Below are positions 48,741-63,992 of a DNA stretch of 64,000 nt, in pieces. Numbering within the stretch: the stretch's first letter is position 1; the number at the start of each line of letters is the position of its first letter. Source of the stretch: an uncultured Planctomycetaceae bacterium (GTDB taxonomy: Bacteria; Planctomycetota; Planctomycetia; Planctomycetales; Planctomycetaceae). Location: NCBI GenBank assembly GCA_963976765.1, contig CAXBME010000007.1, positions 124,001 through 188,000 of the forward strand. The letters run 5' to 3'. The translations under genes and the position numbers were made by a program. The notes below the pieces were generated by a model, which was given only the letters and a program-made list of their open reading frames with translations, made no database searches and was not told the DNA's origin.

Positions 48741-48959
48741 ATGAGTGGACCCATCGTCCGAACCGGCACAACGCCAGAATTCTGGGCCAACTACGACCAG
48801 GTTTTCGGTAACAAGAAAGCTACAAAGAAAAAGGCAGCGAAGAAAAAGGCAGCCAGTGCGGCAGGCACCAAAAAGAAGGCGACGAAGAAAGCTGCCGTGA
48901 AAAAGAAGGCTGCTGCGAAGAAACCAGCAAAGAAAAAGGCTGCCAAAAAGAAAAAATAG
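48741..48959 (+). CDS. Small Lys/Ala-rich histone H1-like protein
   Basis: 24-aa head plus KKKAA repeats (25 Lys in 72 aa); GGAG RBS; followed by a terminator. Confidence 0.8.
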   Translation: MSGPIVRTGTTPEFWANYDQVFGNKKATKKKAAKKKAASAAGTKKKATKKAAVKKKAAAKKPAKKKAAKKKK

Positions 48960-51900: not shown

Positions 51901-51980
51901 ATTTCACCGCAATTTAACGTGTTGAACAGTTGGATGGAGTCTCTGAAGGCACCGTCGTTACCTGCGGATTGGGTCTCGCG

Positions 51981-52874
51981 ATGAGCAGTTCAGCTATCGA
52001 AGAAAAACGCGACAGGCTGCTACGGATTCTGCAGGGTTACGAATCTGTCGTCGTCGCATTTTCGGCTGGCGTTGACAGTACCGTCCTCGCAAAAGCCGCT
52101 GCCCTTGCCTGTGGAGACAATGCCGTTGCAGTGACGGCGCTCAGCCCAAGCCTTGCGTCTGGCGAACTCGATCAGGCTCGCGAACTTGCCAAATTGATTG
52201 GAATTCGCCACGAAATCGTCAAAACCGACGAATTCAAAAACCCTGCCTACCTGGCCAATCCGGCCAACCGCTGTTATTTCTGCAAAACCGAGCTGTACGG
52301 TCACCTTGGTCCACTCGCAGAAAAGATGGGCATTAAAGTCGTTGTTAACGGCGCAAACCTCGACGACCAGGGTGACTACCGGCCAGGTATGGTGGCTGCT
52401 GCTGAAAATTCTGTATCCAGCCCCCTCGTTGACGCAGAATTCTCGAAGGCACACGTTCGAGAGTTAGCCAAATTATGGGGGCTTCCAGTCTGGGACAAAC
52501 CTGCTACGCCGTGCCTGTCCAGTCGAATTGCTTATGGCGTCGAAGTGACCCCCGAACGGGTTTCCATGATCGACGCCGCTGAACGGTTTCTGTCGCAACT
52601 AACTGGAGTCACACAACTTCGAGTTCGCCTCGAGTATCAGGACCTCGCTCGAGTTGAGGTGCCGCTCGGTCAGTTTGCTGCTATCACTGAGCCGGCGGCA
52701 GCCAGCGCTATCGTTACAAAACTGCTGAGCCTTGGCTTTCGTAACGTCACACTGGATCTTCAGGGGTTCCGATCAGGCAGCATGAATTCTGTCCTTCGGG
52801 ACGTCCCGAATCTGGTGCCACTCAGTAACTTCTCGCAAGAGGACTGGCAGCCTGCTGAGCTTGAGCAAGGCTGA
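51981..52874 (+). CDS. larE: LarE-family ATP-dependent sulfur insertase (PP-loop)
   Basis: AFSAGVDS PP-loop, NRCYFCK, DYRPG, PCLSSRIAYG, GFRSGSMN. Confidence 0.88.
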   Translation: MSSSAIEEKRDRLLRILQGYESVVVAFSAGVDSTVLAKAAALACGDNAVAVTALSPSLASGELDQARELAKLIGIRHEIVKTDEFKNPAYLANPANRCYFCKTELYGHLGPLAEKMGIKVVVNGANLDDQGDYRPGMVAAAENSVSSPLVDAEFSKAHVRELAKLWGLPVWDKPATPCLSSRIAYGVEVTPERVSMIDAAERFLSQLTGVTQLRVRLEYQDLARVEVPLGQFAAITEPAAASAIVTKLLSLGFRNVTLDLQGFRSGSMNSVLRDVPNLVPLSNFSQEDWQPAELEQG

Positions 52875-52974: not shown

Positions 52975-53010
52975 TTGACACTCTGAGATTTCGTCAATAG
53001 TATCCCCGCT
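52975..53010 (+). promoter_or_regulatory. Near-consensus sigma70 promoter of the S10 operon
   Basis: TTGACA-N17-TAGTAT followed by discriminator CCCCGC, 55 nt upstream of the rpsJ ATG. Confidence 0.8.
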
Positions 53011-53058
53011 TTCCCGCACAGGTTCGCGGGGTCGGACAGCGTCTAAAGGCAGTGTGAG

Positions 53059-53376
53059 ATGACTCAGGAACGAATTCGAATCCGAATGGAAGCGTATGAT
53101 CACGCCATTCTGGATCTGTCAGCGACCGATATTGTGAACACGGCAAAGCGTACTGGTGCTGATGTTCGGGGGCCGGTTCCGCTGCCGACTCGGTGTGAGC
53201 GTTACACAGTGCTTCGCAGTCCGCATATTGACAAGAAGTCTCGGGAGCAGTTCGAGATTCGAACTCACAAGAGGCTGATTGAGATTCTGCAGCCGACGGG
53301 TAAGACGATTGATGCTTTGAATAAGCTGTCGTTGCCTGCTGGTGTTGATGTAAAGATTAAGGCAGGGGCTCGCTAG
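53059..53376 (+). CDS. rpsJ: 30S ribosomal protein S10
   Basis: [40 protein letters not shown]. Confidence 0.97.
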
Positions 53377-53539
53377 GCTGTTGCTTTTGTTGTGTTTCGC
53401 AGAGCCTTTGGTGGTTGCTCTGCTGAGATGCATAGACTTCTCTCAAGTGGCTTGAGGGATGAGGTTCTGGTTGAGCTTGCTGCTTGGTCAGGAATGGCGA
53501 TGTCGCCTCTGGTGACCTCTCAGCGATATGAGGATAGAG

Positions 53540-54121
53540 ATGCATACTGCGATTCTCGCAACAAAAGTCGGCATGACACAGGTCTATGACGATGGTGGGA
53601 ATGTTCAGCCTGTGACGGTGCTTGAAGTTGGGCCGTGCAGGGTTGAGTTGCTTCGCACTCTTGAGTGTGATGGTTATAGTGCTCTGCAGATGTCGCTTGA
53701 GCGAAGTGGCAAGGTTGTTGCTCGGCGTGAATCTCGCATTGAGCCGGATGTTCGGCAGTATGAAGTCGGTGAGCGGCTTGATGCCCCGTTTATTGAAGTT
53801 GGCGGTAAAGTTGATGTTGTCGGGACGAGTAAGGGTCGCGGCTTTGCTGGCGTTATGAAGCGTCACAACTTTGCAGGTCAGAGGGCGTCGCACGGTGTTA
53901 AAAAGTGCCATCGGCATCCTGGGTCGACTGGTATGAGTGCTGACCCTGCTCGGGTGATTAAAGGTACTAAGATGTCCGGTCGCTACGGTGGTGTGAAGTC
54001 GACTGTTCGCAATCTTGTTGTTGTTCGGTACGACGCGGAGCGTGGTGTTCTGGCTGTGAAGGGGGCGGTTCCGGGGCCGAATGGCGGCCTGGTTGCGGTT
54101 CGCATGCAGGTTGAGGCCTAG
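53540..54121 (+). CDS. rplC: 50S ribosomal protein L3 (short, internal deletion)
   Basis: KVGMTQV, PVTV, DGYSALQ, GTSKGRGFAGVMKRHNF, KGAVPGPNG. Confidence 0.95.
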   Translation: MHTAILATKVGMTQVYDDGGNVQPVTVLEVGPCRVELLRTLECDGYSALQMSLERSGKVVARRESRIEPDVRQYEVGERLDAPFIEVGGKVDVVGTSKGRGFAGVMKRHNFAGQRASHGVKKCHRHPGSTGMSADPARVIKGTKMSGRYGGVKSTVRNLVVVRYDAERGVLAVKGAVPGPNGGLVAVRMQVEA

Positions 54122-54182
54122 GTCTGTTGGTTTAGGTTTTTGTTGATAACTGAAATGAACAGTCGAATTCTGAGGCGGCCAG

Positions 54183-54809
54183 ATGGCTCGGGTTAATAAG
54201 CTTAATTCAGATCTTACAGTGGCAGGTGAAGTTGGTGTCGACGAGACGCAACTTGCAGCCAAGGTGACGAAGCAGCTCGTTCATGATGCTTGTGTGATGT
54301 ATCACGCAAACAGGCGTGTCGGGACAGTGCGGACGAAGTCGCGTGCTGAGATTGCCGGGACGCGAGCGAAGATGTATCGACAAAAGGGTACGGGTCGCGC
54401 GCGGGCCGGACATAAGCAGTCTCCGGTTCGGCGAGGCGGTGGTCACGCGTTTGCGAAGCGGCCTAAGGATTGGTCGTACGCGTTACCCCGGAAGGCCTTG
54501 CGGGTGGCGACGCGAATGGCTCTTCGTCTTAAGATAGAGGCGGGCCAGTTGAGTGTTGTTGAGTCGTTGGATTTGCCAGAGGTGCGTACCAGGTATGTGG
54601 CGGCGGCGATTCGGAGCGGTGGGTATCAAGGGCAAAGCTGTCTGTTTGTTACAGAAGGTGTGAATGCTGGTCTTGTGCGAGCTGCTCGAAATATTCCAAA
54701 AGTTTCAGTGCTGCCACGGGCTGACTTGAATGCCGATGTTTTAATGAGGCATCGGAACGTTCTGGTTCTGGGTGAGGCGGTGCCTTTGCTGTTTCGGCAG
54801 GAAGCTTAG
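54183..54809 (+). CDS. rplD: 50S ribosomal protein L4
   Basis: GTVRTKSRAE, RQKGTGRARAG, RGGG, ARNIP. Confidence 0.95.
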   Translation: MARVNKLNSDLTVAGEVGVDETQLAAKVTKQLVHDACVMYHANRRVGTVRTKSRAEIAGTRAKMYRQKGTGRARAGHKQSPVRRGGGHAFAKRPKDWSYALPRKALRVATRMALRLKIEAGQLSVVESLDLPEVRTRYVAAAIRSGGYQGQSCLFVTEGVNAGLVRAARNIPKVSVLPRADLNADVLMRHRNVLVLGEAVPLLFRQEA

Positions 54810-54857
54810 TTTTGAAGTTGATTGTTGTGTGTTTGCCAAGTGTAGGTTGGGTTGAGC

Positions 54858-55151
54858 ATGGTGGATCAGAGAGTTCGGTCAGAGCACATTCTTAAGGGTG
54901 TCATGCTCACAGAGAAAACTGCGTTCCAGGCGGAGAATCAGAACGTCTATTCGTTCGATGTGCCTCTCAGTGCGAACAAAGTTGAGATTCGTGAAGCGGT
55001 CGAGGCTGCTTTCGGTGTTCGTGTCTTGTCTGTGAATACAATTACTCGCTTGGGTCGGCCGAAGCGTCATCGGGCTCATTTCAGCCAGGGTCAGACAAGA
55101 AAACGTGCTCTGGTGAGGCTTCACGGCGAAGATCGAATCTCGCTGTACTAA
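54858..55151 (+). CDS. rplW: 50S ribosomal protein L23
   Basis: [30 protein letters not shown]; operon position. Confidence 0.92.
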
Positions 55152-55176
55152 TATCGAAAGATTGCGGAGATACGTT

Positions 55177-56034
55177 GTGGGAATTCGCATATACAAGCCA
55201 ACTAGTGCTGGGCGGCGCAATGCGTCTGTAAGTACGTTCGAAGAGCTGACCTTTAAGGGGAATAGGCCTGAGAAGAGTCTGATTCGGCGTGCTGCAAAAA
55301 CAGGCGGGCGAAATCATCAGGGCAAGATTACGGCACATCATCGTGGCGGTGGTCACAAGCGGATGTATCGTATTATTGATTTCAAGCGGCGGGTTGACGG
55401 CGTTGCTGGCTTGGTGAAGTCTGTTGAGTACGATCCAAATCGCTCCTCAAATATTGCTCTGGTGTGCTATGAGGACGGTCAGAAAGCTTATATTATTGCC
55501 CCGGCAGGATTGGTGGCCGGGAGTAAGGTTTACAGTGGTGATTCCGGTGTTGAGCCGAAAGTTGGGAACTCAATGCCGCTGTCACAGATTCCTTTGGGGT
55601 CTGTGATTCATAACATTGAGCTGCAGCCGGGGCGTGGTGGTCAGTTGTGTCGAAGTGCAGGCACAAGTGCCGTTATGAATGCTCGCGAGGGGAACTGGGC
55701 TCAAATTACTTTGCCATCGGGTGAGGTTCGGCGAGTGCCGGCCAGTTGTCGAGCCACAATGGGTGAGGTTGGCAACTCTGATCACCAGAATGTGGTGTTA
55801 GGGAAAGCTGGGCGGCGACGCTGGATGGGTTGGAGGCCGCATGTTCGAGGGACCTGCAAGAACCCTCATGATCACCCTCATGGGGGTGGTGAAGGTCGGA
55901 CCAAGGGGGGGCGTCATCCATGCAGTCCTACTGGGAAGCTGTCTAAAGGTGGGGCCACGAGGAAGAAGAAGAAAGCCTCAAGTGACGCAATTCTTCGCCG
56001 GCGGAAGTCGCGTAGGAATGGTCAGCTCAAGTAG
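55177..56034 (+). CDS. rplB: 50S ribosomal protein L2
   Basis: [40 protein letters not shown]. Confidence 0.97.
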
Positions 56035-56099
56035 CTGGTCTGGCAGACATGAACTGTTAGTAATAGTTACCCGGTTGTGTAGAGATTGAGGAAGGCTAG

Positions 56100-56363
56100 A
56101 TGTCACGGTCGCTCAAAAAAGGTCCATATGTCGACGAAAAGCTTCTGCAGAAGATCGACCGTATGGGGCCCACTAAACAGCCGATTAAAACATGGGCTCG
56201 TAGTTCAACGATCGCGCCGGAGTTTATTGGTCACACGTTTCTGGTGCACAACGGAAAGATCTTTTTGAACGTCTACGTGACGGAAGAAATGGTTGGGCAT
56301 AAGCTTGGTGAGTTTTCGCCAACCAGGACGTTTCGCGGGCACGGTGCTCGAGGTAAGCGGTAG
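56100..56363 (+). CDS. rpsS: 30S ribosomal protein S19
   Basis: [30 protein letters not shown]. Confidence 0.97.
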
Positions 56364-56401
56364 GCGATTCTTAAACGGCGGATGGTTCCTGAGGTTTAAT
56401 T

Positions 56402-56743
56402 ATGGCGCTTGTGAAAAGCGAACATCGATATGCAAGAATCGCTTCTACGAAAGTGAATCGAATTCTGCCAATTATTCGTGGTCGCGAAGTTGGCGACAGT
56501 CTTGACTTGTTGAAAACTCTGCCAAATCTGGCGGCTCGGTTGGTTGAGGCTGTGGTGCAGACTGCTGCTGCTAATGCCGCCGAGGCGGGCGTTCGTAACG
56601 TTGAGAAGCTTCGCATTACAGAAGCGGTTGCTAATTGCGGTCCAATGTATAAGCGAATTCGGCCGGGAGCCCGAGGGATGGCTCATGTGGAAAAGCACAG
56701 AACATCCCATATTCGTGTCAAAATCGATGTGCCCGAACTCTAG
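56402..56743 (+). CDS. rplV: 50S ribosomal protein L22
   Basis: RYARI, IRG, AAANA, GPMYKRIRPGARG, RTSHI. Confidence 0.93.
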   Translation: MALVKSEHRYARIASTKVNRILPIIRGREVGDSLDLLKTLPNLAARLVEAVVQTAAANAAEAGVRNVEKLRITEAVANCGPMYKRIRPGARGMAHVEKHRTSHIRVKIDVPEL

Positions 56744-56794
56744 GTCGGTCTGGTCTTTGGTGTTTTGGGATCAACAGTAATTCGGGGTAACGGA

Positions 56795-57493
56795 ATGGGA
56801 CAGAAAGTAAGGCCGACTGGTTTTCGTGTTGGAATTACGGAGCCTTGGCGAAGCCGCTGGTATGCTCCAAAAAAATACTACGGAGAGCTTCTGGTTGAAG
56901 ATCAGAAGATTCGTGAGTTTATCCGGAAGAAGTATCAGTTTGCTGGTGTCTCAAGAGTCGAGATTGAGAGAACTCGCGATCAGGTGGTAGTTCATCTCCA
57001 TACTTCACGGCCTGGGATCATCATCGGTCGTAAGGGGCAGGAAGTTGATCGGCTGAAGGCTGAGATGGAAGCGCTAACTGGTCGTCATCTCGATCTTAAG
57101 ATTGTCGAAATCAACCATCCGAACAGAAATGCATCGTTGGTTGCTCAGGATATTGCCCAGCAGTTGTCAAAACGTGGTTCGTTTCGACGCACGATTAAGC
57201 GTTCGCTTGAGCAGGTGATTGAGGCGGGCGCAAAAGGTATTAAGGTGCAACTGTCGGGGCGACTCGGCGGTGCGGAAATGTCTCGGTGTGAAAAAGCAAG
57301 CAGGGGTTCGGTTCCTCTTTCAACGTTAAGGCGTCACATTGATTACAGCCTCGCTGAGGCTAATACAAAGATGGGCGTGATTGGCGTAAAAGTCTGGATT
57401 GACCTCGGCGACTATAGTGAGGAGTTAACTGATGGCCCTGATGCCAAAACGAGTAAAGCATCGCAAAAGCCAAAGAGGTCGTATAAAAGGTAA
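56795..57493 (+). CDS. rpsC: 30S ribosomal protein S3
   Basis: MGQKVRPTGFRVG, RPGIIIGRKG, SGRLGGAEM, GVKVWI. Confidence 0.97.
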   Translation: MGQKVRPTGFRVGITEPWRSRWYAPKKYYGELLVEDQKIREFIRKKYQFAGVSRVEIERTRDQVVVHLHTSRPGIIIGRKGQEVDRLKAEMEALTGRHLDLKIVEINHPNRNASLVAQDIAQQLSKRGSFRRTIKRSLEQVIEAGAKGIKVQLSGRLGGAEMSRCEKASRGSVPLSTLRRHIDYSLAEANTKMGVIGVKVWIDLGDYSEELTDGPDAKTSKASQKPKRSYKR

Positions 57494-57857
57494 TGCGACT
57501 CGCGGCCACAGGGTGTCGTTTGGTGATTTTGGCCTACAGGCTGCTCAGCCGGGTCATATTACAGCGCAAACGATTGAAGCCTGTCGAATTGCGATCATGC
57601 AGTACATTCGCGGCGAAGGAAAGCTGTACATACGAGTGTTTCCTCATCGTTCCGTGACATCCCGCCCGCTTGAAACCCGAATGGGTAAGGGTAAAGGGGA
57701 TCCGGATCACTGGGTGGCTGTCGTGAAGCCTGGGACAGTGATGTTCGAGGTCGCAGGTGTGTCACTGGACGCTGCAAAAGAGTGTTTTGCACGTGTGGCC
57801 TACAAGCTGCCCGTTAAAGTTAGGTTAGTTGGTCGACAGCTTGGAGCAGGATCGTAG
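57432..57857 (+). CDS. rplP: 50S ribosomal protein L16
   Basis: MPKRVKHRKSQRG, IRVFP, RMGKGKG, KLPVK. Confidence 0.97.
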   Translation: MALMPKRVKHRKSQRGRIKGNATRGHRVSFGDFGLQAAQPGHITAQTIEACRIAIMQYIRGEGKLYIRVFPHRSVTSRPLETRMGKGKGDPDHWVAVVKPGTVMFEVAGVSLDAAKECFARVAYKLPVKVRLVGRQLGAGS

Positions 57858-57865
57858 GTCTGGCT

Positions 57866-58063
57866 ATGGCGAACACGAAACAGCTGAGAGAAATGACAAC
57901 TGAGCAGTTGCAGCACGAACTGGCTGAGGCGAGGAAGAATTTTCTCGATCGGTCAGTGCGGACTTCTGCTTCTCAGGATGAGACAGGGCCCAGTCGCATG
58001 CAGTTGCGGCGGGGTATTGCCAAGATTCGAACAATTTTGCGTGAGCGCGAAATCGAAGCCTGA
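57866..58063 (+). CDS. rpmC: 50S ribosomal protein L29 (divergent)
   Basis: LREMTTEQL...LRRGIAKIRTILRER; operon position. Confidence 0.9.
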   Translation: MANTKQLREMTTEQLQHELAEARKNFLDRSVRTSASQDETGPSRMQLRRGIAKIRTILREREIEA

Positions 58064-58077
58064 AAAAGGGTGATCCG

Positions 58078-58317
58078 TTGAAACAAACACTGATTGGTAT
58101 TGTCACCAGTACAAAATCTTCGAAGACCCTGCGGGTGGAAGTGCCACGTAAAGTTCGGCACCCACTTTATGGCAAGATCGTAAGCCAGAGAACTGTCTGT
58201 CACGCTCACGACGAGAACGAAGAAGCGCAGGTCGACGATCGTGTTGAGATTGTCGAAAGCAGGCCGCATTCACGCCTGAAGAGATGGGAATTGGTGAAGG
58301 TGCTTTCCCGTCATTGA
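58078..58317 (+). CDS. rpsQ: 30S ribosomal protein S17
   Basis: [30 protein letters not shown] start. Confidence 0.95.
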
Positions 58318-58378
58318 TTGCTCACATTTGGAAACTTTGTCAGCCTACGAGTTGATATATTTACTAGGAATTGTGTCG

Positions 58379-58747
58379 ATGATCCAGATGCAGACGGTGC
58401 TGGACGTAGCTGACAATAGCGGCGCCAAGGTTGTTCGTTGCATTAAGGTTCTTGGTGGAACCGGGAAACGGGTGGCCGGACTGGGTGAGGTCGTCGTGTT
58501 GAGTGTTCAGAAAACTGTCCCTGGTGGTGCCATCAAGAAAGGGCAGGTTGTTCGCGGCGTGATCGTTCGCTGTCGTAAGGCAACTCGTCGATCTGATGGG
58601 TCGTACGTTCGGTTTGATCGAAACGCCGTTGTGATTGTGGATGCAGATGGAAATCCGCGGGGAACGCGAATCTTCGGAGCTGTTGCTCGTGAGCTTCGCG
58701 AACGCCGGTTCATGAGAATCATCAGTTTGGCAAGCGAAGTTGTCTAA
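58379..58747 (+). CDS. rplN: 50S ribosomal protein L14
   Basis: [38 protein letters not shown]. Confidence 0.97.
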
Positions 58748-58795
58748 TCTGAGAGCTGGGTTTAATTTCGCTTTGACGGGTAAGGCAGTCGGAAG

Positions 58796-59350
58796 ATGGC
58801 ACGAGTACAGCAGCGGTATCAAACTGAGATCATTCCAGCTCTTGCGAAAGAGCTTGGGCTGAAGAATCAACTGGCTGTTCCGCGAATCGAGCGGGTCGTC
58901 GTCAGTATGGGGATCTCTAATTCTCATACTGACAGGAAGCGACTTGAGCAGTCCGCGGAACAACTGGGTATCATTACAGGCCAGAAAGCAAAGATCACAC
59001 GAGCACGGCGGTCCATCGCCAACTTCAAACTTCGCGAGGGGATGGAGATTGGATGTTGTGTAACCCTTCGTCGGGCAAGGATGTGGGAGTTCTTGGATCG
59101 TCTGATCTCTATTGCTCTTCCTCGAGTCCGCGACTTCAGGGGGTTGAATGATAAAGCTTTTGATGGGCGTGGAAACTTCAGTATGGGGCTGACTGAACAA
59201 CTTGTGTTCCCTGAGGTTGACGTAGACAAGGCGACTTTCGTCCAAGGCATGAACATCACAGTTGTTACGACAGCGAAAACAAACGACGAGGGGCGTGCAC
59301 TTCTGAGGGCTATTGGGTTCCCGTTCCAGAAGCCGGAAGTCACTAACTGA
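58796..59350 (+). CDS. rplE: 50S ribosomal protein L5
   Basis: ITGQKA, FKLREG, LPRVRDFRG, FDGRGN, EQLVFPE. Confidence 0.97.
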   Translation: MARVQQRYQTEIIPALAKELGLKNQLAVPRIERVVVSMGISNSHTDRKRLEQSAEQLGIITGQKAKITRARRSIANFKLREGMEIGCCVTLRRARMWEFLDRLISIALPRVRDFRGLNDKAFDGRGNFSMGLTEQLVFPEVDVDKATFVQGMNITVVTTAKTNDEGRALLRAIGFPFQKPEVTN

Positions 59351-59401
59351 ACCAACAGGCCAGCGGCGGCTGGCTGATTGAGACCTTGGGGAGCCAAAGA
59401 A

Positions 59402-59587
59402 GTGGCAAGTAAGTCTAAAATCGCAAAGTCCAAAAGGACGCCAAAGTTCAGCAGTCGAATTCAACGGCGTTGTCAGCTTTGCGGTCGCCCTCGGGCGGTT
59501 TATCGAAAGTTTCATGTCTGCCGAATCTGTTTCCGGAACCTGTGCCTCGACGGCGTAGTGCCTGGTGCCAGAAAAGCCAGTTGGTAA
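59402..59587 (+). CDS. rpsN: 30S ribosomal protein S14, zinc-binding (type Z)
   Basis: [23 protein letters not shown]...KASW; GTG start. Confidence 0.96.
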
Positions 59588-59606
59588 GCGGCGTCCGGAG
59601 AATATT

Positions 59607-60002
59607 ATGCACAGTGATCCAATTGCTGACATGTTGACGCGAATCAGGAACGGTGTTTCAATCGAACGTCCGTTCGTTGACGTGCCTTATTCCAGATTGA
59701 AACATAACGTTGCGGAAGTCTTGCAGCGCGAAGGGTTTATCTGGGATGCAGAGGTTGTCGAGAGTGAGCCGGTTCGCACGCTTCGCGTGAATCTCAAGTA
59801 CGGCCCTAACGGTGAAATGGTCATCAACCACATTCAGCGTGTGAGTCGACCTGGTCGCCGCGTGTACGCGGCTGCGTCTGAGATGAATCGTGTTCGGCAC
59901 GGCACAGGCATCACGGTCGTCACTACTCCGCAGGGTGTTCTGAGTAATCGCGAAGCACGAAAAGGCCATGTTGGCGGCGAAGTGCTCGCTGAGGTCTGGT
60001 AA
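59607..60002 (+). CDS. rpsH: 30S ribosomal protein S8
   Basis: DPIADMLTRIRN, RVSRPGRRVY, GGEVLAEVW. Confidence 0.97.
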   Translation: MHSDPIADMLTRIRNGVSIERPFVDVPYSRLKHNVAEVLQREGFIWDAEVVESEPVRTLRVNLKYGPNGEMVINHIQRVSRPGRRVYAAASEMNRVRHGTGITVVTTPQGVLSNREARKGHVGGEVLAEVW

Positions 60003-60053
60003 TTCCACGTTGATTCATGCGACGCATGGAACACGTCTGTATCGAGAGTTGAT

Positions 60054-60602
60054 ATGTCACGTATCGGTAAAAAGCCAATCGAGATTCCGGCAAAGGTCGA
60101 AGTCTCAGTCAGTGGCCGAGATGTTACTGTTAAAGGCCCGAATGGTACTCTGCAGTGGCAGCACCCTGAGGGGGTCAGTGTTGAAGTTGACAGTGAGGCG
60201 AAACGTGTCACTGTCACCCGCGAATCTGACGCCGGGTCGTTGCGTGCATTTCACGGGCTCACTCGGGCGCTTTTGAATAACATGGTGGTTGGCGTCGTTG
60301 AACACTTCGAGAAGCGTCTCGAAATTCAAGGAGTCGGCTATCAAGCAACATTAAGCGGAGGGGAGTTGCGACTGCAAGTTGGCTTCTCTCACTCTGTCGA
60401 CCTTAAGGTTCCTTCCGATATTGACTGTTCTCTTGTCAGTCCGACATTGATCGTGGTCAAAGGCTGTAACAAGCACTCAGTCGGCCAGTTTGCAGCAAAC
60501 ATAAGAGCAGTCCGCCCCCCAGAGCCCTATAAGGGCAAAGGCATTCGTTACCAGGGTGAACACGTTCGCCGCAAAGCTGGTAAGGCGTTTGGCTCGAAGT
60601 AG
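60054..60602 (+). CDS. rplF: 50S ribosomal protein L6
   Basis: MSRIGKKPI, VKGPNG, PEPYKGKGIRY, RRKAGK. Confidence 0.97.
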   Translation: MSRIGKKPIEIPAKVEVSVSGRDVTVKGPNGTLQWQHPEGVSVEVDSEAKRVTVTRESDAGSLRAFHGLTRALLNNMVVGVVEHFEKRLEIQGVGYQATLSGGELRLQVGFSHSVDLKVPSDIDCSLVSPTLIVVKGCNKHSVGQFAANIRAVRPPEPYKGKGIRYQGEHVRRKAGKAFGSK

Positions 60603-60665
60603 GGTGGCAGTAGATTTTTAACGGTACATACAGGCAGGTTAACAACGCGTGCGGGGACGTCGGCA

Positions 60666-61034
60666 ATGGTAAGTAATATTAAACGGCAGCAACTTAGAAG
60701 GAAACGGCGCGTTAATCGTGTCAGGAATTCAATTCGGCGTTGCTCAACACGTCAGTACCGCCTGTCCGTCTTCCGAAGCAACAGCAATATCTATGCTCAG
60801 CTGATCGATGACGCTAAGGGGATTACCGTGTGTGCTGTAAATACGCTGCAAGGTAGTGTTTCAAACGCGAATGGTGGGAGTGTCGCCGCGGCAACTCAGG
60901 TCGGTACTCGAATTGCCGAACTCGCGGTCGGATTAAACATTAAAGAAGCGGCGCTTGATCGTGGTGCCTATCGTTATCATGGTCGTATCGCAGCGTTGGC
61001 TGATGCTGCTCGAGCGGCTGGATTAAATTTATAA
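60666..61034 (+). CDS. rplR: 50S ribosomal protein L18
   Basis: [35 protein letters not shown]. Confidence 0.95.
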
Positions 61035-61087
61035 GTTTGAGTCAGAACGTACCCTCGCATCGGATTGATGTGAGCTTGGAGACGGTA

Positions 61088-61582
61088 ATGTCTGAAGTTG
61101 TAAGTCGGCAGGAATCTGCTGAGCACGTAGTATCGATTCGCCGTTGTGCCTGTGTTGTAAAGGGTGGGCGTCGGTTCAGCTTTACAGCGCTCGTCGTTGT
61201 CGGGGACCGGAATGGTCGAGTCGGCTGGGGGTATGGCAAGGCGCCAGAAGTTCCTCAAGCTGTAGAAAAAGCCGTGAAGCAGGCTGAGAGGAAACTTGAG
61301 ACCGTTTGCTTGAAGCAGATTGAACCGGGCGTCACTGTCCCGCATGAAATTGTTGGTCGTTACGGTGCGGCTCGAGTCTTGTTAATTCCAGCCCGACCGG
61401 GAACTGGAGTTATCGCAGGAGGCTGTGTTCGGTCTGTGCTGGACGCTGCGGGTATCACGGATATCCTTACCAAGAGTCAGGGATCGAACAACCCCCTCAA
61501 CCTTGTGAAGGCAACACTTAACGGACTAGGTCAGCTTCAGGCGCTGGAAGACGTGCAGCGGCTTCGAGGCGTGAAACTGTAA
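61088..61582 (+). CDS. rpsE: 30S ribosomal protein S5
   Basis: [38 protein letters not shown]. Confidence 0.97.
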
Positions 61583-61630
61583 GTTTAATGACCTGTTCGA
61601 TGGCTATCAAAATGCCATCAGGAGAAATCA

Positions 61631-62077
61631 ATGGTCAGTCTCTCTGACATCAATCATGATATCGTGCGGCACAAGCGTAAGCGGCGTGTTGGGCGAGGTA
61701 ACGGTAGTGGATACGGTAAGACGGCTTCTCGAGGCGAAAACGGCGCTGGAAGCAGGGCTGGTAATCGTCGGCGACGCGGGTACGAAGGTGGCCAGATGCC
61801 ACTGTTCAGACGCGTCGCGAAACGAGGATTTTCGAATGCTGCGTTTACCGGCGAGATCGTCGTAATTAACGTCGATCAGCTGGAGACGAGGTTTGAAGAT
61901 GGTCAGGACGTCACGCTTTCAGAACTGAAGAAGGCGTTCTCGCTGTCCCGAAAAGTGGAAGTCAAAATTCTCGGCCGCGGTGAGCTGACGCGAAAGCTTA
62001 ATGTGTGCGCAAACGCCTTCTCCGCATCAGCTGAGGCTGCGATCACTGCCGTCGGCGGTTCTGTGGTTCGCGTTTGA
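61631..62077 (+). CDS. rplO: 50S ribosomal protein L15
   Basis: RRVGRGNGSG, EGGQMPLFRR, KILGRG. Confidence 0.96.
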   Translation: MVSLSDINHDIVRHKRKRRVGRGNGSGYGKTASRGENGAGSRAGNRRRRGYEGGQMPLFRRVAKRGFSNAAFTGEIVVINVDQLETRFEDGQDVTLSELKKAFSLSRKVEVKILGRGELTRKLNVCANAFSASAEAAITAVGGSVVRV

Positions 62078-62098
62078 CGCCGGATAGGAACGTGACTG

Positions 62099-63460
62099 AT
62101 GGTCGAGAAGTTTTTGCTGCTGTTTAAGATTCCCGAGCTTCGTCGGAAACTTCTGCTGACTGTGATCCTGCTGGCCGTTTATCGGATGGGATTCTGGATT
62201 CCCTTGCCTTTTGTTGATCAAGCGGCAATTCGGGAGAGTATCCAGAAGATGCAGGAGGGCGGCGACACCGGCTTTGGCCAGGTGATGCAGATCGTGGCGT
62301 TGTTTTCGGCTTCCAAGGTCGGAAATGCGACGATATTTGGCCTCGGTATCATGCCGTACATATCTGCGTCGATTATCTTTCAGCTGCTCGGACAGGTCTA
62401 CCCACCGCTTGAGGCTCTTCAGAAGGAAGGCGAGTCCGGGCGAAAAAAAATAAACGAATACACGCGGTACGCCACCGTATTGATATGTCTCGGTCAGAGC
62501 TTCTTTTGGATACTGGCGTTATCGAGTGGCAAGTTGTTTGGCGTGAATGTCATTCTCAATGAGTGGAACCATTGGTATTGGCATCTTGTTGGTGCACTTT
62601 GGATGACAACCGGAACGGTTGTCCTGATGTGGATTGGCGAGCAGATTGACGCCTACGGTTTAGGTAATGGAATCAGCCTGTTGATCATGGCTGGGATTGT
62701 CGCTCAGATGCCTAACGGTGGAGCGATGCTTTTTGAACCAGCACTCAGGAATGGAATCCGAATTGGAACCGAAACTGGCATCGAAAGGTTTCTGATGCTT
62801 GGCGCGGTGTTTGTTGGGGTGGTTGTTTGGGTGGTGCTAATCACGCAAGGCCAGCGGCGGATTCCGATACAAAGCGCAAAACATGTTCGCGGACGTCGCC
62901 AGGTTGGCGGTCAGCGGCAGTTTTTGCCGTTGCGGCTCAATCAAGCGGGTGTGATGCCGATTATTTTTGCATCCAGCCTCCTGATGTTTCCTTACATGGT
63001 CTTTAATTGGCTGGCACAGGTTGTTGATAACAGGCTCATTACTATACTCGCTCAGGCTTTCGGAGGAGGCAGGGGATATATCTACTCGATGTGTTACATT
63101 GGGTTGATTTACTTTTTCTGCTATTTCTGGACGGCAATCACCTTCAACCCTCGAGAGATTGCGGCAAATTTGAAGGATCACGGAAGCTTTATTCCAGGCT
63201 ACCGCCCAGGTGCAAGAACATCGAACTACCTAGAGTCAGTAATGGTGCGAATCACTTATGTGGGGGCAGCTTTTTTATCGCTGATCGCGGTGATTCCGAC
63301 CTTGATTGCCAGCTCTATGGGGATCGACCCTTTGATTGCGAGCTTCTACGGCGGAACTGGGCTCCTCATTGTGGTGTCGGTCGCACTCGACTTGGTTCAG
63401 AAAATTGACAGTCATTTGATCACGCGGAACTACTCCGGGCTACTTGAGTCCGATAATTGA
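62099..63460 (+). CDS. secY: Preprotein translocase subunit SecY
   Basis: LGIMPYISASII, GNGISLLI, AGVMPIIFASS, IPGYRPG, GGTGLLIVV. Confidence 0.97.
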   Translation: MVEKFLLLFKIPELRRKLLLTVILLAVYRMGFWIPLPFVDQAAIRESIQKMQEGGDTGFGQVMQIVALFSASKVGNATIFGLGIMPYISASIIFQLLGQVYPPLEALQKEGESGRKKINEYTRYATVLICLGQSFFWILALSSGKLFGVNVILNEWNHWYWHLVGALWMTTGTVVLMWIGEQIDAYGLGNGISLLIMAGIVAQMPNGGAMLFEPALRNGIRIGTETGIERFLMLGAVFVGVVVWVVLITQGQRRIPIQSAKHVRGRRQVGGQRQFLPLRLNQAGVMPIIFASSLLMFPYMVFNWLAQVVDNRLITILAQAFGGGRGYIYSMCYIGLIYFFCYFWTAITFNPREIAANLKDHGSFIPGYRPGARTSNYLESVMVRITYVGAAFLSLIAVIPTLIASSMGIDPLIASFYGGTGLLIVVSVALDLVQKIDSHLITRNYSGLLESDN

Positions 63461-63484
63461 TTGAAACTTCAGTAGGATTGAGTA

Positions 63485-63601
63485 ATGAAGGTCCGGTCCA
63501 GTATCAAACGAATATGCGAACAATGTAAGATTGTTCGACGCCGAGGCAAGGTTTATGTGATTTGTCCGGCCAACCCAAAGCACAAGCAGAGGCAGGGATA
63601 G
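63485..63601 (+). CDS. rpmJ: 50S ribosomal protein L36 (zinc-ribbon form; not in the ORF track)
   Basis: Manual translation: [38 protein letters not shown]. Confidence 0.96.
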
Positions 63602-63605
63602 GATA

Positions 63606-63992
63606 ATGCCACGTATTCTCGGGGTCGACGTACCAAACGATAAGCCGACATATATTGCACTGACCTATCTTTATGGGGTTGGGACAGTTACGGCTATTTC
63701 TCTGTGTTATCAGCTTGGTGTTGATCCGCAGGCCAAAGCTTCAGCGCTGGGCGAAGACGACATCGCCCGTATTAACACGCACCTCGACAAAGAGCTAACT
63801 GTAGAAGGTGCTCTGCGACGTAAGGTGCAGCAGGACATTTCGCGTTTGAGGGAAATTCGATGTTATCGCGGAATCAGGCACCGAAGGGGATTGCCTGTCA
63901 GAGGGCAGCGGACCAGGACTAACGCACGCACGCGTAAAGGTGTCAAGAAAACTGTGGCGGGAAAAAAGGGCGTGAAGGATATGAAGCACTGA
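63606..63992 (+). CDS. rpsM: 30S ribosomal protein S13
   Basis: MPRILGVD, ALTYLYGVG, YRGIRHRRGLPVRGQRTRTNARTRKG. Confidence 0.97.
   Translation: MPRILGVDVPNDKPTYIALTYLYGVGTVTAISLCYQLGVDPQAKASALGEDDIARINTHLDKELTVEGALRRKVQQDISRLREIRCYRGIRHRRGLPVRGQRTRTNARTRKGVKKTVAGKKGVKDMKH

Follow-up and report, generated by a model that had tools for sequence, protein, structure and literature searches.

A promoter-linked gradient of strand-asymmetric change in the S10-spc-alpha and tuf operons of an uncultured Planctomycetaceae bacterium

The 64,000-nucleotide stretch analysed here (the window: positions 124,001 to 188,000 of contig CAXBME010000007.1, GenBank assembly GCA_963976765.1, from an uncultured Planctomycetaceae bacterium) carries 22 genes, rpsJ to rpsM including secY, of an S10-spc-alpha ribosomal protein operon, which a sequence-only reading had described as compositionally alien and possibly a second, specialised ribosomal protein set. 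The operon is the organism's only one and is vertically inherited; it serves the normal ribosome and provides SecY, uL24 being encoded at another locus. Its G/T-rich composition is not foreign and is shared with the tuf-rpoBC and atp operons. As a pattern in the sequences compared, synonymous sites and spacers are shifted from C to T and from A to G along the coding strand, the shift being strongest close to the promoter; in the tuf operon of a congener (G003), which faces the replication fork, it affects the opposite strand. The explanation we consider probable is that replication-polarised transitions, arising on the lagging-strand template, are boosted in promoter-proximal DNA that is presumably heavily transcribed. 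More generally, and tentatively, with a confidence slightly short of even, we propose that in Planctomycetia the first few kilobases behind the strongest housekeeping promoters may be hotspots of transitions polarised by replication strand, arising where transcription and fork passage interact, even in co-directional operons; they would invert codon bias, increase synonymous rates in ribosomal genes and flip with natural inversions. The source genome is designated G000 (8.57 Mb; scored 100% complete, 0.49% contamination); other G numbers denote the genomes of relatives, L numbers single loci, and C numbers (C30, C4 and so on) contigs of G000.

Results

Codon usage opposed to selection in native operons

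The background gene set (5920 genes) came from a home-made gene caller and skew was ranked over 5448 genes; the caller missed rplD and rplB, several operon genes being scored too low, so the rankings understate the S10 operon. The dominance of T and G in third positions was confirmed, their joint frequency (GT3) being 0.631 in the operon vs. 0.502 genome-wide and that of G and C (GC3) 0.523 vs. 0.639, and rpmB in the same window indeed differs (GT3 0.50). Among the codons listed as usually avoided by highly expressed genes, four have a raised share in the operon with respect to the genome (AGG 0.12 vs. 0.05, ATA 0.07 vs. 0.02, TTA 0.06 vs. 0.02, AGT 0.25 vs. 0.12), but AGA is not enriched (0.06 in both). 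The odd composition is thus real, but "alien" misnames its cause, the native tuf-rpoBC operon being more extreme: tuf, rplK, rplC and secE hold ranks 1-4 for skew, rpsJ, nusG and two atp genes ranks 6-9, and of 8342 3-kb windows the seven with the strongest skew all fall within the tuf, atp and S10 operons. The tuf, rplK, rpsB and groEL genes were named through family matches, whereas the other genes of the tuf operon and the atp genes are presumably what their translations and gene order suggest; motif patterns for further ribosomal proteins gave many false matches and only clear ones were kept.

The tuf operon runs tRNA-Thr/Tyr/Gly/Thr-tuf-Trp-secE-nusG-rplKAJL-rpoBC-rpsLG-fusA (G000:C4:90863-73366, minus strand), and its tuf, the single one in G000, is the most skewed gene of the genome. 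A small unidentified open reading frame (ORF) at G000:C51:5777-6187 (plus strand) ranks fifth of 5448 for the same skew and might point to a further strong promoter or to a non-coding RNA.

The organism has codon selection, and the S10 and tuf operons run counter to it: the Sharp-type S is negative in both (-0.91 and -0.70) and positive for groEL (+0.96), so selection is present but overridden in these operons. Divergence at 4-fold sites, measured against seven congeners, is 0.49-0.65 for the S10 operon vs. 0.39-0.57 for ordinary genes and 0.25-0.48 for groESL; it exceeds that of other genes in all seven comparisons, significantly in five.

A gradient that restarts at rpsJ

Skew falls along both operons (rho -0.60 over 24 genes for S10, -0.93 over 12 genes for tuf), and the gradient is negative in 17 of 19 operon cases, the exceptions being the S10 operon of G002 (+0.53) and the tuf operon of G003 (+0.31). 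Where fusA directly precedes rpsJ, the skew restarts at rpsJ, T among pyrimidines (T/Y) rising from 0.40 to 0.72 in L197 (Fuerstiella sp.), from 0.40 to 0.54 in G010 and from 0.47 to 0.61 in L184. This reset is clear in the three loci and in L248, small in L222, L226, L185 and L213, and absent in L198. Spacers follow the codons, those between rplK and rplL holding 0.64 G+T in G000 vs. 0.47 in G003. On this sequence evidence, the gradient, the rpsJ reset, the skewed spacers and the raised 4-fold divergence together point to mutation tied to promoters.

A 5'-heavy shift was also found elsewhere in Planctomycetia, in L197 (0.71/0.79), L217 of Aureliella (0.64/0.73) and L184 (0.60/0.68). In many of the 24 planctomycete loci, which were compared without a background from their own genomes, the shift is weak or absent, and that of Rhodopirellula europaea (L185) is C/A-rich; some relatives fit poorly.

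The same data bear on the idea that there is no local boost, and that operons kept long on one strand simply reach the full replication skew whereas ordinary genes are scrambled by inversions. The genus is heavily rearranged and its genome-wide skew weak, as this idea would have it; however, fusA and rpsJ differ sharply despite their common history in fused clusters, mqnE-larE is linked to rpsJ across the genus yet unskewed, and per-site rates, compared on one branch, are 2-3 times those of co-oriented genes. The reset at rpsJ already largely refutes it, and we regard it as very unlikely.

Reversal of the pattern in a fork-facing operon

In G000 the S10 and tuf operons are both encoded on the strand that is G/T-rich in their flanks and are co-directional with replication, while rpsB-tsf and the groEL pair of C23 lie on the opposite (lagging) strand and show no such skew. 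The tuf operon of G003 occupies the minus strand of a 323-kb contig; this strand is C/A-rich, and all six stretches sampled show a G/T-rich plus strand. Its 5' genes have a T/Y of 0.31 and a share of G among purines (G/R) of 0.42, vs. 0.76 and 0.79 in G000, and the co-directional S10 operon of G003 itself has 0.69 for both. When changes in these genes are polarised by means of G001, C>T is 0.30, A>G 0.27 and T>C 0.05 on the branch to G000, whereas T>C is 0.38 and G>A 0.29 on that to G003. Compared with nine ordinary lagging genes of the same contig, the G003 branch has T>C at 45/175 sites vs. 51/428 (2.2-fold; p 7e-5) and G>A at 37/165 vs. 45/585 (2.9-fold; p 7e-7). Read on the opposite strand and against its own background, the G003 profile has a mean of +0.64 and agrees with the co-directional profile in sign and shape (rho 0.98).

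Over the operon cases as a whole, the skew excess tracks flank polarity (rho 0.60 in 22 of 25 cases, three having no opposite-strand flank genes; kin are not independent), and in the four genomes where the two operons differ clearly in polarity the leading one is always the more shifted. The 5' genes of the S10 operon of G002 are moving in reverse (T>C 0.22, G>A 0.23), on a contig too short to read polarity.

Classical deamination of the non-template strand during transcription, added to ordinary replication skew, would account for a gradient and a reset linked to promoters, and several operons with neutral or lagging-like flanks keep a positive excess as it predicts. Coding-strand C>T is moreover its textbook direction in the part of the literature covered (PMC2031905), and the excess of C>T over T>C given above for the 5' tuf genes of G000 is what it calls for. 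A term giving a T/Y of 0.76 should nevertheless keep the head-on copy T-rich, and G003 has 0.31; its G/R of 0.42 falls under the lagging background of that genome (0.53-0.59); and independence of orientation fails in G003, though the operons of G009 and G019 are not reversed. Such deamination is therefore an improbable main cause, but may add a smaller component that does not depend on orientation.

Selection on the mRNA for low C and high G/U, e.g., against Rho-dependent termination or for structure, would fit a coding strand that is C-poor near the promoter, and two ORFs of the genome (G000:C2:325025-326851 and C4:312813-314168) match what we take to be a Rho motif. It should not flip with replication orientation, however, and the orthologous operon of G003 is C/A-rich; synonymous divergence, furthermore, is raised rather than lowered. 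We see only a slim chance that such selection explains the pattern. As for ordinary replication asymmetry, the sign does follow fork direction, but an equal size for all genes on a strand is contradicted by the swing described below, the gradient and the reset.

A possible mechanism and the points against it

The swing of the tuf 5' genes, from +2.68 to -1.23 log units (3.9 in total, vs. 0.2-0.8 for flanking genes), exceeds the usual difference between leading and lagging genes about fivefold, so that a purely additive model fails; we infer an interaction between fork passage and dense polymerase. In the mechanism we favour, transcription from a strong promoter would raise, a few-fold, those transitions whose strand is set by replication, at C and A on the lagging-strand template. 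A slowed fork might keep the lagging template single-stranded for longer, allowing C and A to deaminate, which is one possible route offered tentatively; escape of replication errors from mismatch repair in promoter-proximal DNA is a somewhat more doubtful one. The mutational flux would then outrun weak codon selection and leave behind codons ending in T/G or containing TA, along with a high synonymous rate. A>G is strongest before C, a context resembling that of replication errors in repair-deficient Escherichia coli, although the context of C>T does not resemble its counterpart there. In mismatch repair-defective E. coli, according to the portion of that study available, mutation at A and C is about twice as frequent when they lie on the lagging-strand template, and substitutions in ribosomal genes correlate with expression (rho 0.44; PMC8510543).

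Several observations weigh against this mechanism. The same source, as far as it is accessible, reports no effect of orientation on overall substitution frequency (PMC8510543). Replication strand was deduced from flank composition in draft genomes, and substitutions were polarised by parsimony, which may be biased under shifting composition. The reversal is clear in a single genome, G003, while its sister G005 as well as G008 and G002 lend partial support, and the tRNA spacers upstream of the G003 tuf still hold 61% G+T. The rank match of the mirrored profile is partly strand-symmetric, since co-directional operons match their own mirror with rho 0.5-0.7, probably through gain of TA and loss of CG. 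Lagging-like flanks accompany a positive excess (+0.49 to +1.02) in both operons of G010, the S10 operon of G023 and the tuf operons of G009 and G019, cases that call for either recent inversions or a component independent of orientation. No T shift was found in rpsA, eno or rpmA, whose flanks are weakly to clearly leading. Finally, loss of repair genes as a cause was rejected, mutS, mutL, mfd and one uracil-DNA glycosylase being present.

Family-1 ung occurs in 6 and nfi in 17 of 41 genomes, neither of them in the genus, and their presence does not track skew, with skewed genomes among those having ung (G013, G020) or nfi (G012, G019).

A single, vertically inherited operon

Three origins had been envisaged for the operon: a duplicated copy building alternative ribosomes and translocon, a sole copy under lineage-specific accelerated evolution, or a chimeric join. 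Each of the 22 proteins matches only itself in G000 by tblastn, which leaves a paralogous second operon without support, and there is one rplK and one rpsB. In the 41 genomes searched uL2 had a match in 39, a single one in 38; the exception, G018, gives five overlapping fragments at one place. An alternative translocon finds no place either, SecY being the only one and canonical by its family model, with a score for the SecY2 model (155.6) far below the cut-off of 353. The rpsN product passes the S14 type Z model, and L36 reaches the cut-off of the canonical model but not that of type B, so that the operon holds no zinc-free S14 or L36.

Gene order is the same in seven congeners as far as their contigs extend, at 71-100% identity, and the mqnE-larE-rpsJ junction recurs in five of the six congeners with upstream DNA covered (G001, G002, G003 with an insert, G006 and G007; it is absent in G004), which speaks against a chimeric join. 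Contigs of two DNA runs from one study, too shallow to probe the junction, list no joint at 53 kb; no RNA run containing the organism was listed. As the earlier reading stated, larE (preceded by mqnE) rather than fusA/tuf lies upstream; fusA is found there in 4 of the 11 family loci checked, and detachment from it is hence common. All seven protein sets, from the S10 and tuf operons alike, yield the same five-taxon clade, and the trees nest the clade inside Planctomycetaceae beside named members, in support of the proposed planctomycete source.

The view that this is a specialised second copy, a block gained horizontally or a chimeric join could draw on the atypical codons and long branches of some proteins, and on the failure of rRNA, including 23S, to be assembled in G000, whose assembly is accordingly not literally whole. 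With none of the 22 proteins having a second copy, rplK and rpsB single, the junction and gene order conserved and the clade nested among family members, we consider the operon neither paralogue nor chimera and give these origins next to no credence. A sole copy with lineage-specific change describes it in part: the copy is sole and uL22/uL23/uL29 and uL3/uL4 have long stems, but the other 50S proteins, the 30S proteins and SecY are not accelerated.

Organisation of the locus

The 22 ORFs are uninterrupted as described (Table 1), and 21 of their products pass the NCBIfam cut-offs, uL23 scoring 80.7 vs. a cut-off of 81. The reported near-consensus promoter is a single sigma-70-like site, TTGACA-17-TAGTAT, weak if taken alone, since shuffled sequence yields 0.4 +/- 0.6 such sites; the position of TTGACA is kept in G001-G004, G006 and G014. 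A leader hairpin tested at 53008-53065 had no support (z -0.07). That secY abuts rpmJ was verified, with 24 nt between them vs. 2-1107 nt in relatives, and beyond the window rpsM is followed by what we take from the translations to be rpsK-rpoA-rplQ. No uL30 (PF00327; rpmD) was found in any of the 41 genomes of the class.

Table 1. Features of the S10-spc-alpha operon and its upstream region in the window (ranks refer to skew; stem ratios are those of the protein-rate test).
Feature	Position	Strand	Remarks
larE	51930..52874	+	upstream neighbour, same strand; no skew (4-fold C 0.33)
Sigma-70-type promoter	52975..53003	+	10/12 consensus; skew starts shortly downstream
rpsJ (uS10)	53059..53376	+	T excess +0.41, G excess +0.17; rank 6/5448 genes
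rpsJ-rplC spacer	53377..53527	+	5' spacers pooled 67% G+T
rplC (uL3)	53528..54121	+	likely start 53540; clade-wide deletion of ~37 aa vs. family; rank 3/5448
rplD (uL4)	54183..54809	+	stem ratio 1.59
rplW (uL23)	54852..55151	+	stem ratio 2.33
rplB (uL2)	55162..56034	+	strong skew; protein not accelerated (0.67)
rpsS (uS19)	56100..56363	+	family model match
rplV (uL22)	56402..56743	+	stem ratio 1.77
rpsC (uS3) and rplP (uL16)	56765..57857	+	family model matches
rpmC (uL29)	57866..58063	+	stem ratio 2.64
rpsQ (uS17) and rplN (uL14)	58078..58747	+	uS17 of 79 aa vs. 82-137 in other family members
48-nt gap at usual place of rplX	58748..58795	+	rplX instead at G000:C30:60105-60464(-)
rplE, rpsN (type Z), rpsH, rplF, rplR, rpsE, rplO	58796..62077	+	weaker skew; no rpmD
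secY	62099..63460	+	canonical, sole copy; not accelerated (0.70)
rpmJ (bL36) and rpsM (uS13)	63485..63992	+	operon runs on past window

Elsewhere in the window, a 72-aa Lys/Ala-rich ORF of histone-H1-like make-up lies at 48741-48959 (plus strand) and has no Pfam match. Other features of G000 include three large tRNA arrays of similar order, possibly mobile (C5:82893-88140, 38 genes; C27:60-1338, 13; C74:74-3820, 24), with tRNA-Ile(TAT) and tRNA-His(ATG) among the calls; two giant ORFs, probably surface proteins, of about 17,250 (C8:68930-120691, plus strand) and 6,400 codons (C1:198485-217696, plus strand); and a cluster of similar pilin-like ORFs of 110-118 aa, among the most C/A-skewed genes (C30:92034-101562, plus strand).

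Relocation of rplX and change in ribosomal proteins

The absence of rplX between rplN and rplE holds: the gene occurs once in G000, on C30 between a leucine-rich repeat gene and a deacetylase, and lies outside the operon also in G001, G003-G006, G014 and G023. In the metagenome-assembled Fuerstiella genome of L197 (15477-15523) rplX is likewise missing from this place and uL3 is nonetheless of full length, which suggests an excision independent of the clade's. The solo uL24 lacks the CxxC pairs of most operon-encoded family members and retains the family loop motif. It may be a native gene that moved or a displacement by a foreign one: the best tree groups it with two genomes of another family, but monophyly with the family's operon copies is not rejected by the approximately unbiased test (p 0.307).

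The internal deletion noted in uL3 is real, the protein having 192-198 aa in six clade members vs. 230-247 aa in eight other family members, with a gap of about 20 aa relative to mycobacterial uL3; the short form is common to a three-genus clade of uncultured Planctomycetaceae. Protein rates were compared on a fixed tree of 17 taxa. The clade stem ratio is 2.14 for uL22+uL23+uL29 (5-95% of 25 bootstraps, 1.72-2.69) and 1.49 for uL3+uL4, vs. 0.70-0.73 for other 50S proteins, 30S proteins and SecY. Since uL2, uS19, uS3 and uL16, neighbours of the fast proteins, are not accelerated, place in the gradient does not explain this. The proteins uL22, uL23 and uL29 ring the ribosomal tunnel exit, and a burst of change in them on the clade stem may be taken as a lead, the group having been picked after an earlier look at the data. 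Neither trigger factor nor Ffh is accelerated (stem ratios 0.52 and 0.51; the signature loop of trigger factor is intact), and both were rejected as co-evolving partners at the exit site.

Discussion

The operon itself is a known and ordinary system, and there is no alternative ribosome. It shares gene identity and order from rpsJ to rpsM, followed by rpsK-rpoA-rplQ, as well as its single copy, with the bacterial S10-spc-alpha cluster as described in the accessible parts of earlier work (PMC8046335, PMC6735719, PMC2481283). Unlike that cluster, it is detached from fusA, has rplX moved out, no rpmD and a short uL3 and uS17, and nothing interposed between secY and rpmJ or between rpsK and rpoA.

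Parts of the compositional pattern have precedents, each compared here with the passages available from the source. In the slow growers Xylella fastidiosa and Nitrosomonas europaea a low-GC ribosomal protein cluster likewise distorts estimates of codon selection (PMC2639113 citing Sharp et al. 2005; PMC8495750), although those passages give no promoter gradient, reversal with orientation or substitution spectrum, and for such composition PMC8495750 prefers selective or energetic explanations. The replication-strand bias of transitions in E. coli involves the same two transitions under the same strand rule, but is about two-fold, genome-wide and seen in repair mutants, whereas here few promoter-proximal regions are affected and mutS and mutL are kept (PMC8510543). 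Replication-error hotspots in E. coli are enriched where RNA polymerase is dense, in keeping with the position of the present pattern; they are however experimental errors before fixation, and the passages hold no strand-specific spectrum or evolutionary footprint (PMC11754648). Transcription-associated mutagenesis of the non-template strand has in common a coding-strand C>T tied to transcription, but should not flip with inversion of an operon, as that of G003 does (PMC2031905). Our literature search, which took in few subscription papers, returned no account of this pattern in planctomycetes, and as far as this partial literature shows, a promoter-proximal, replication-polarised mutation gradient that overrides codon selection would be a new form of strand-asymmetric mutagenesis.

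To judge from the sections available, whether encounters between replication and transcription cause point mutations is disputed (PMC8510543 against PMC6220195), and natural inversions of one operon among congeners amount to an evolutionary test of such mutagenesis, in planctomycetes with a signal large enough for direct measurement. The pattern also suggests a mechanism by which the odd, so far unexplained composition of ribosomal clusters in Xylella and other slow growers could arise. In this group, codon-adaptation indices, island detectors, binning and GC-skew inversion calls that are built on ribosomal genes will mislead.

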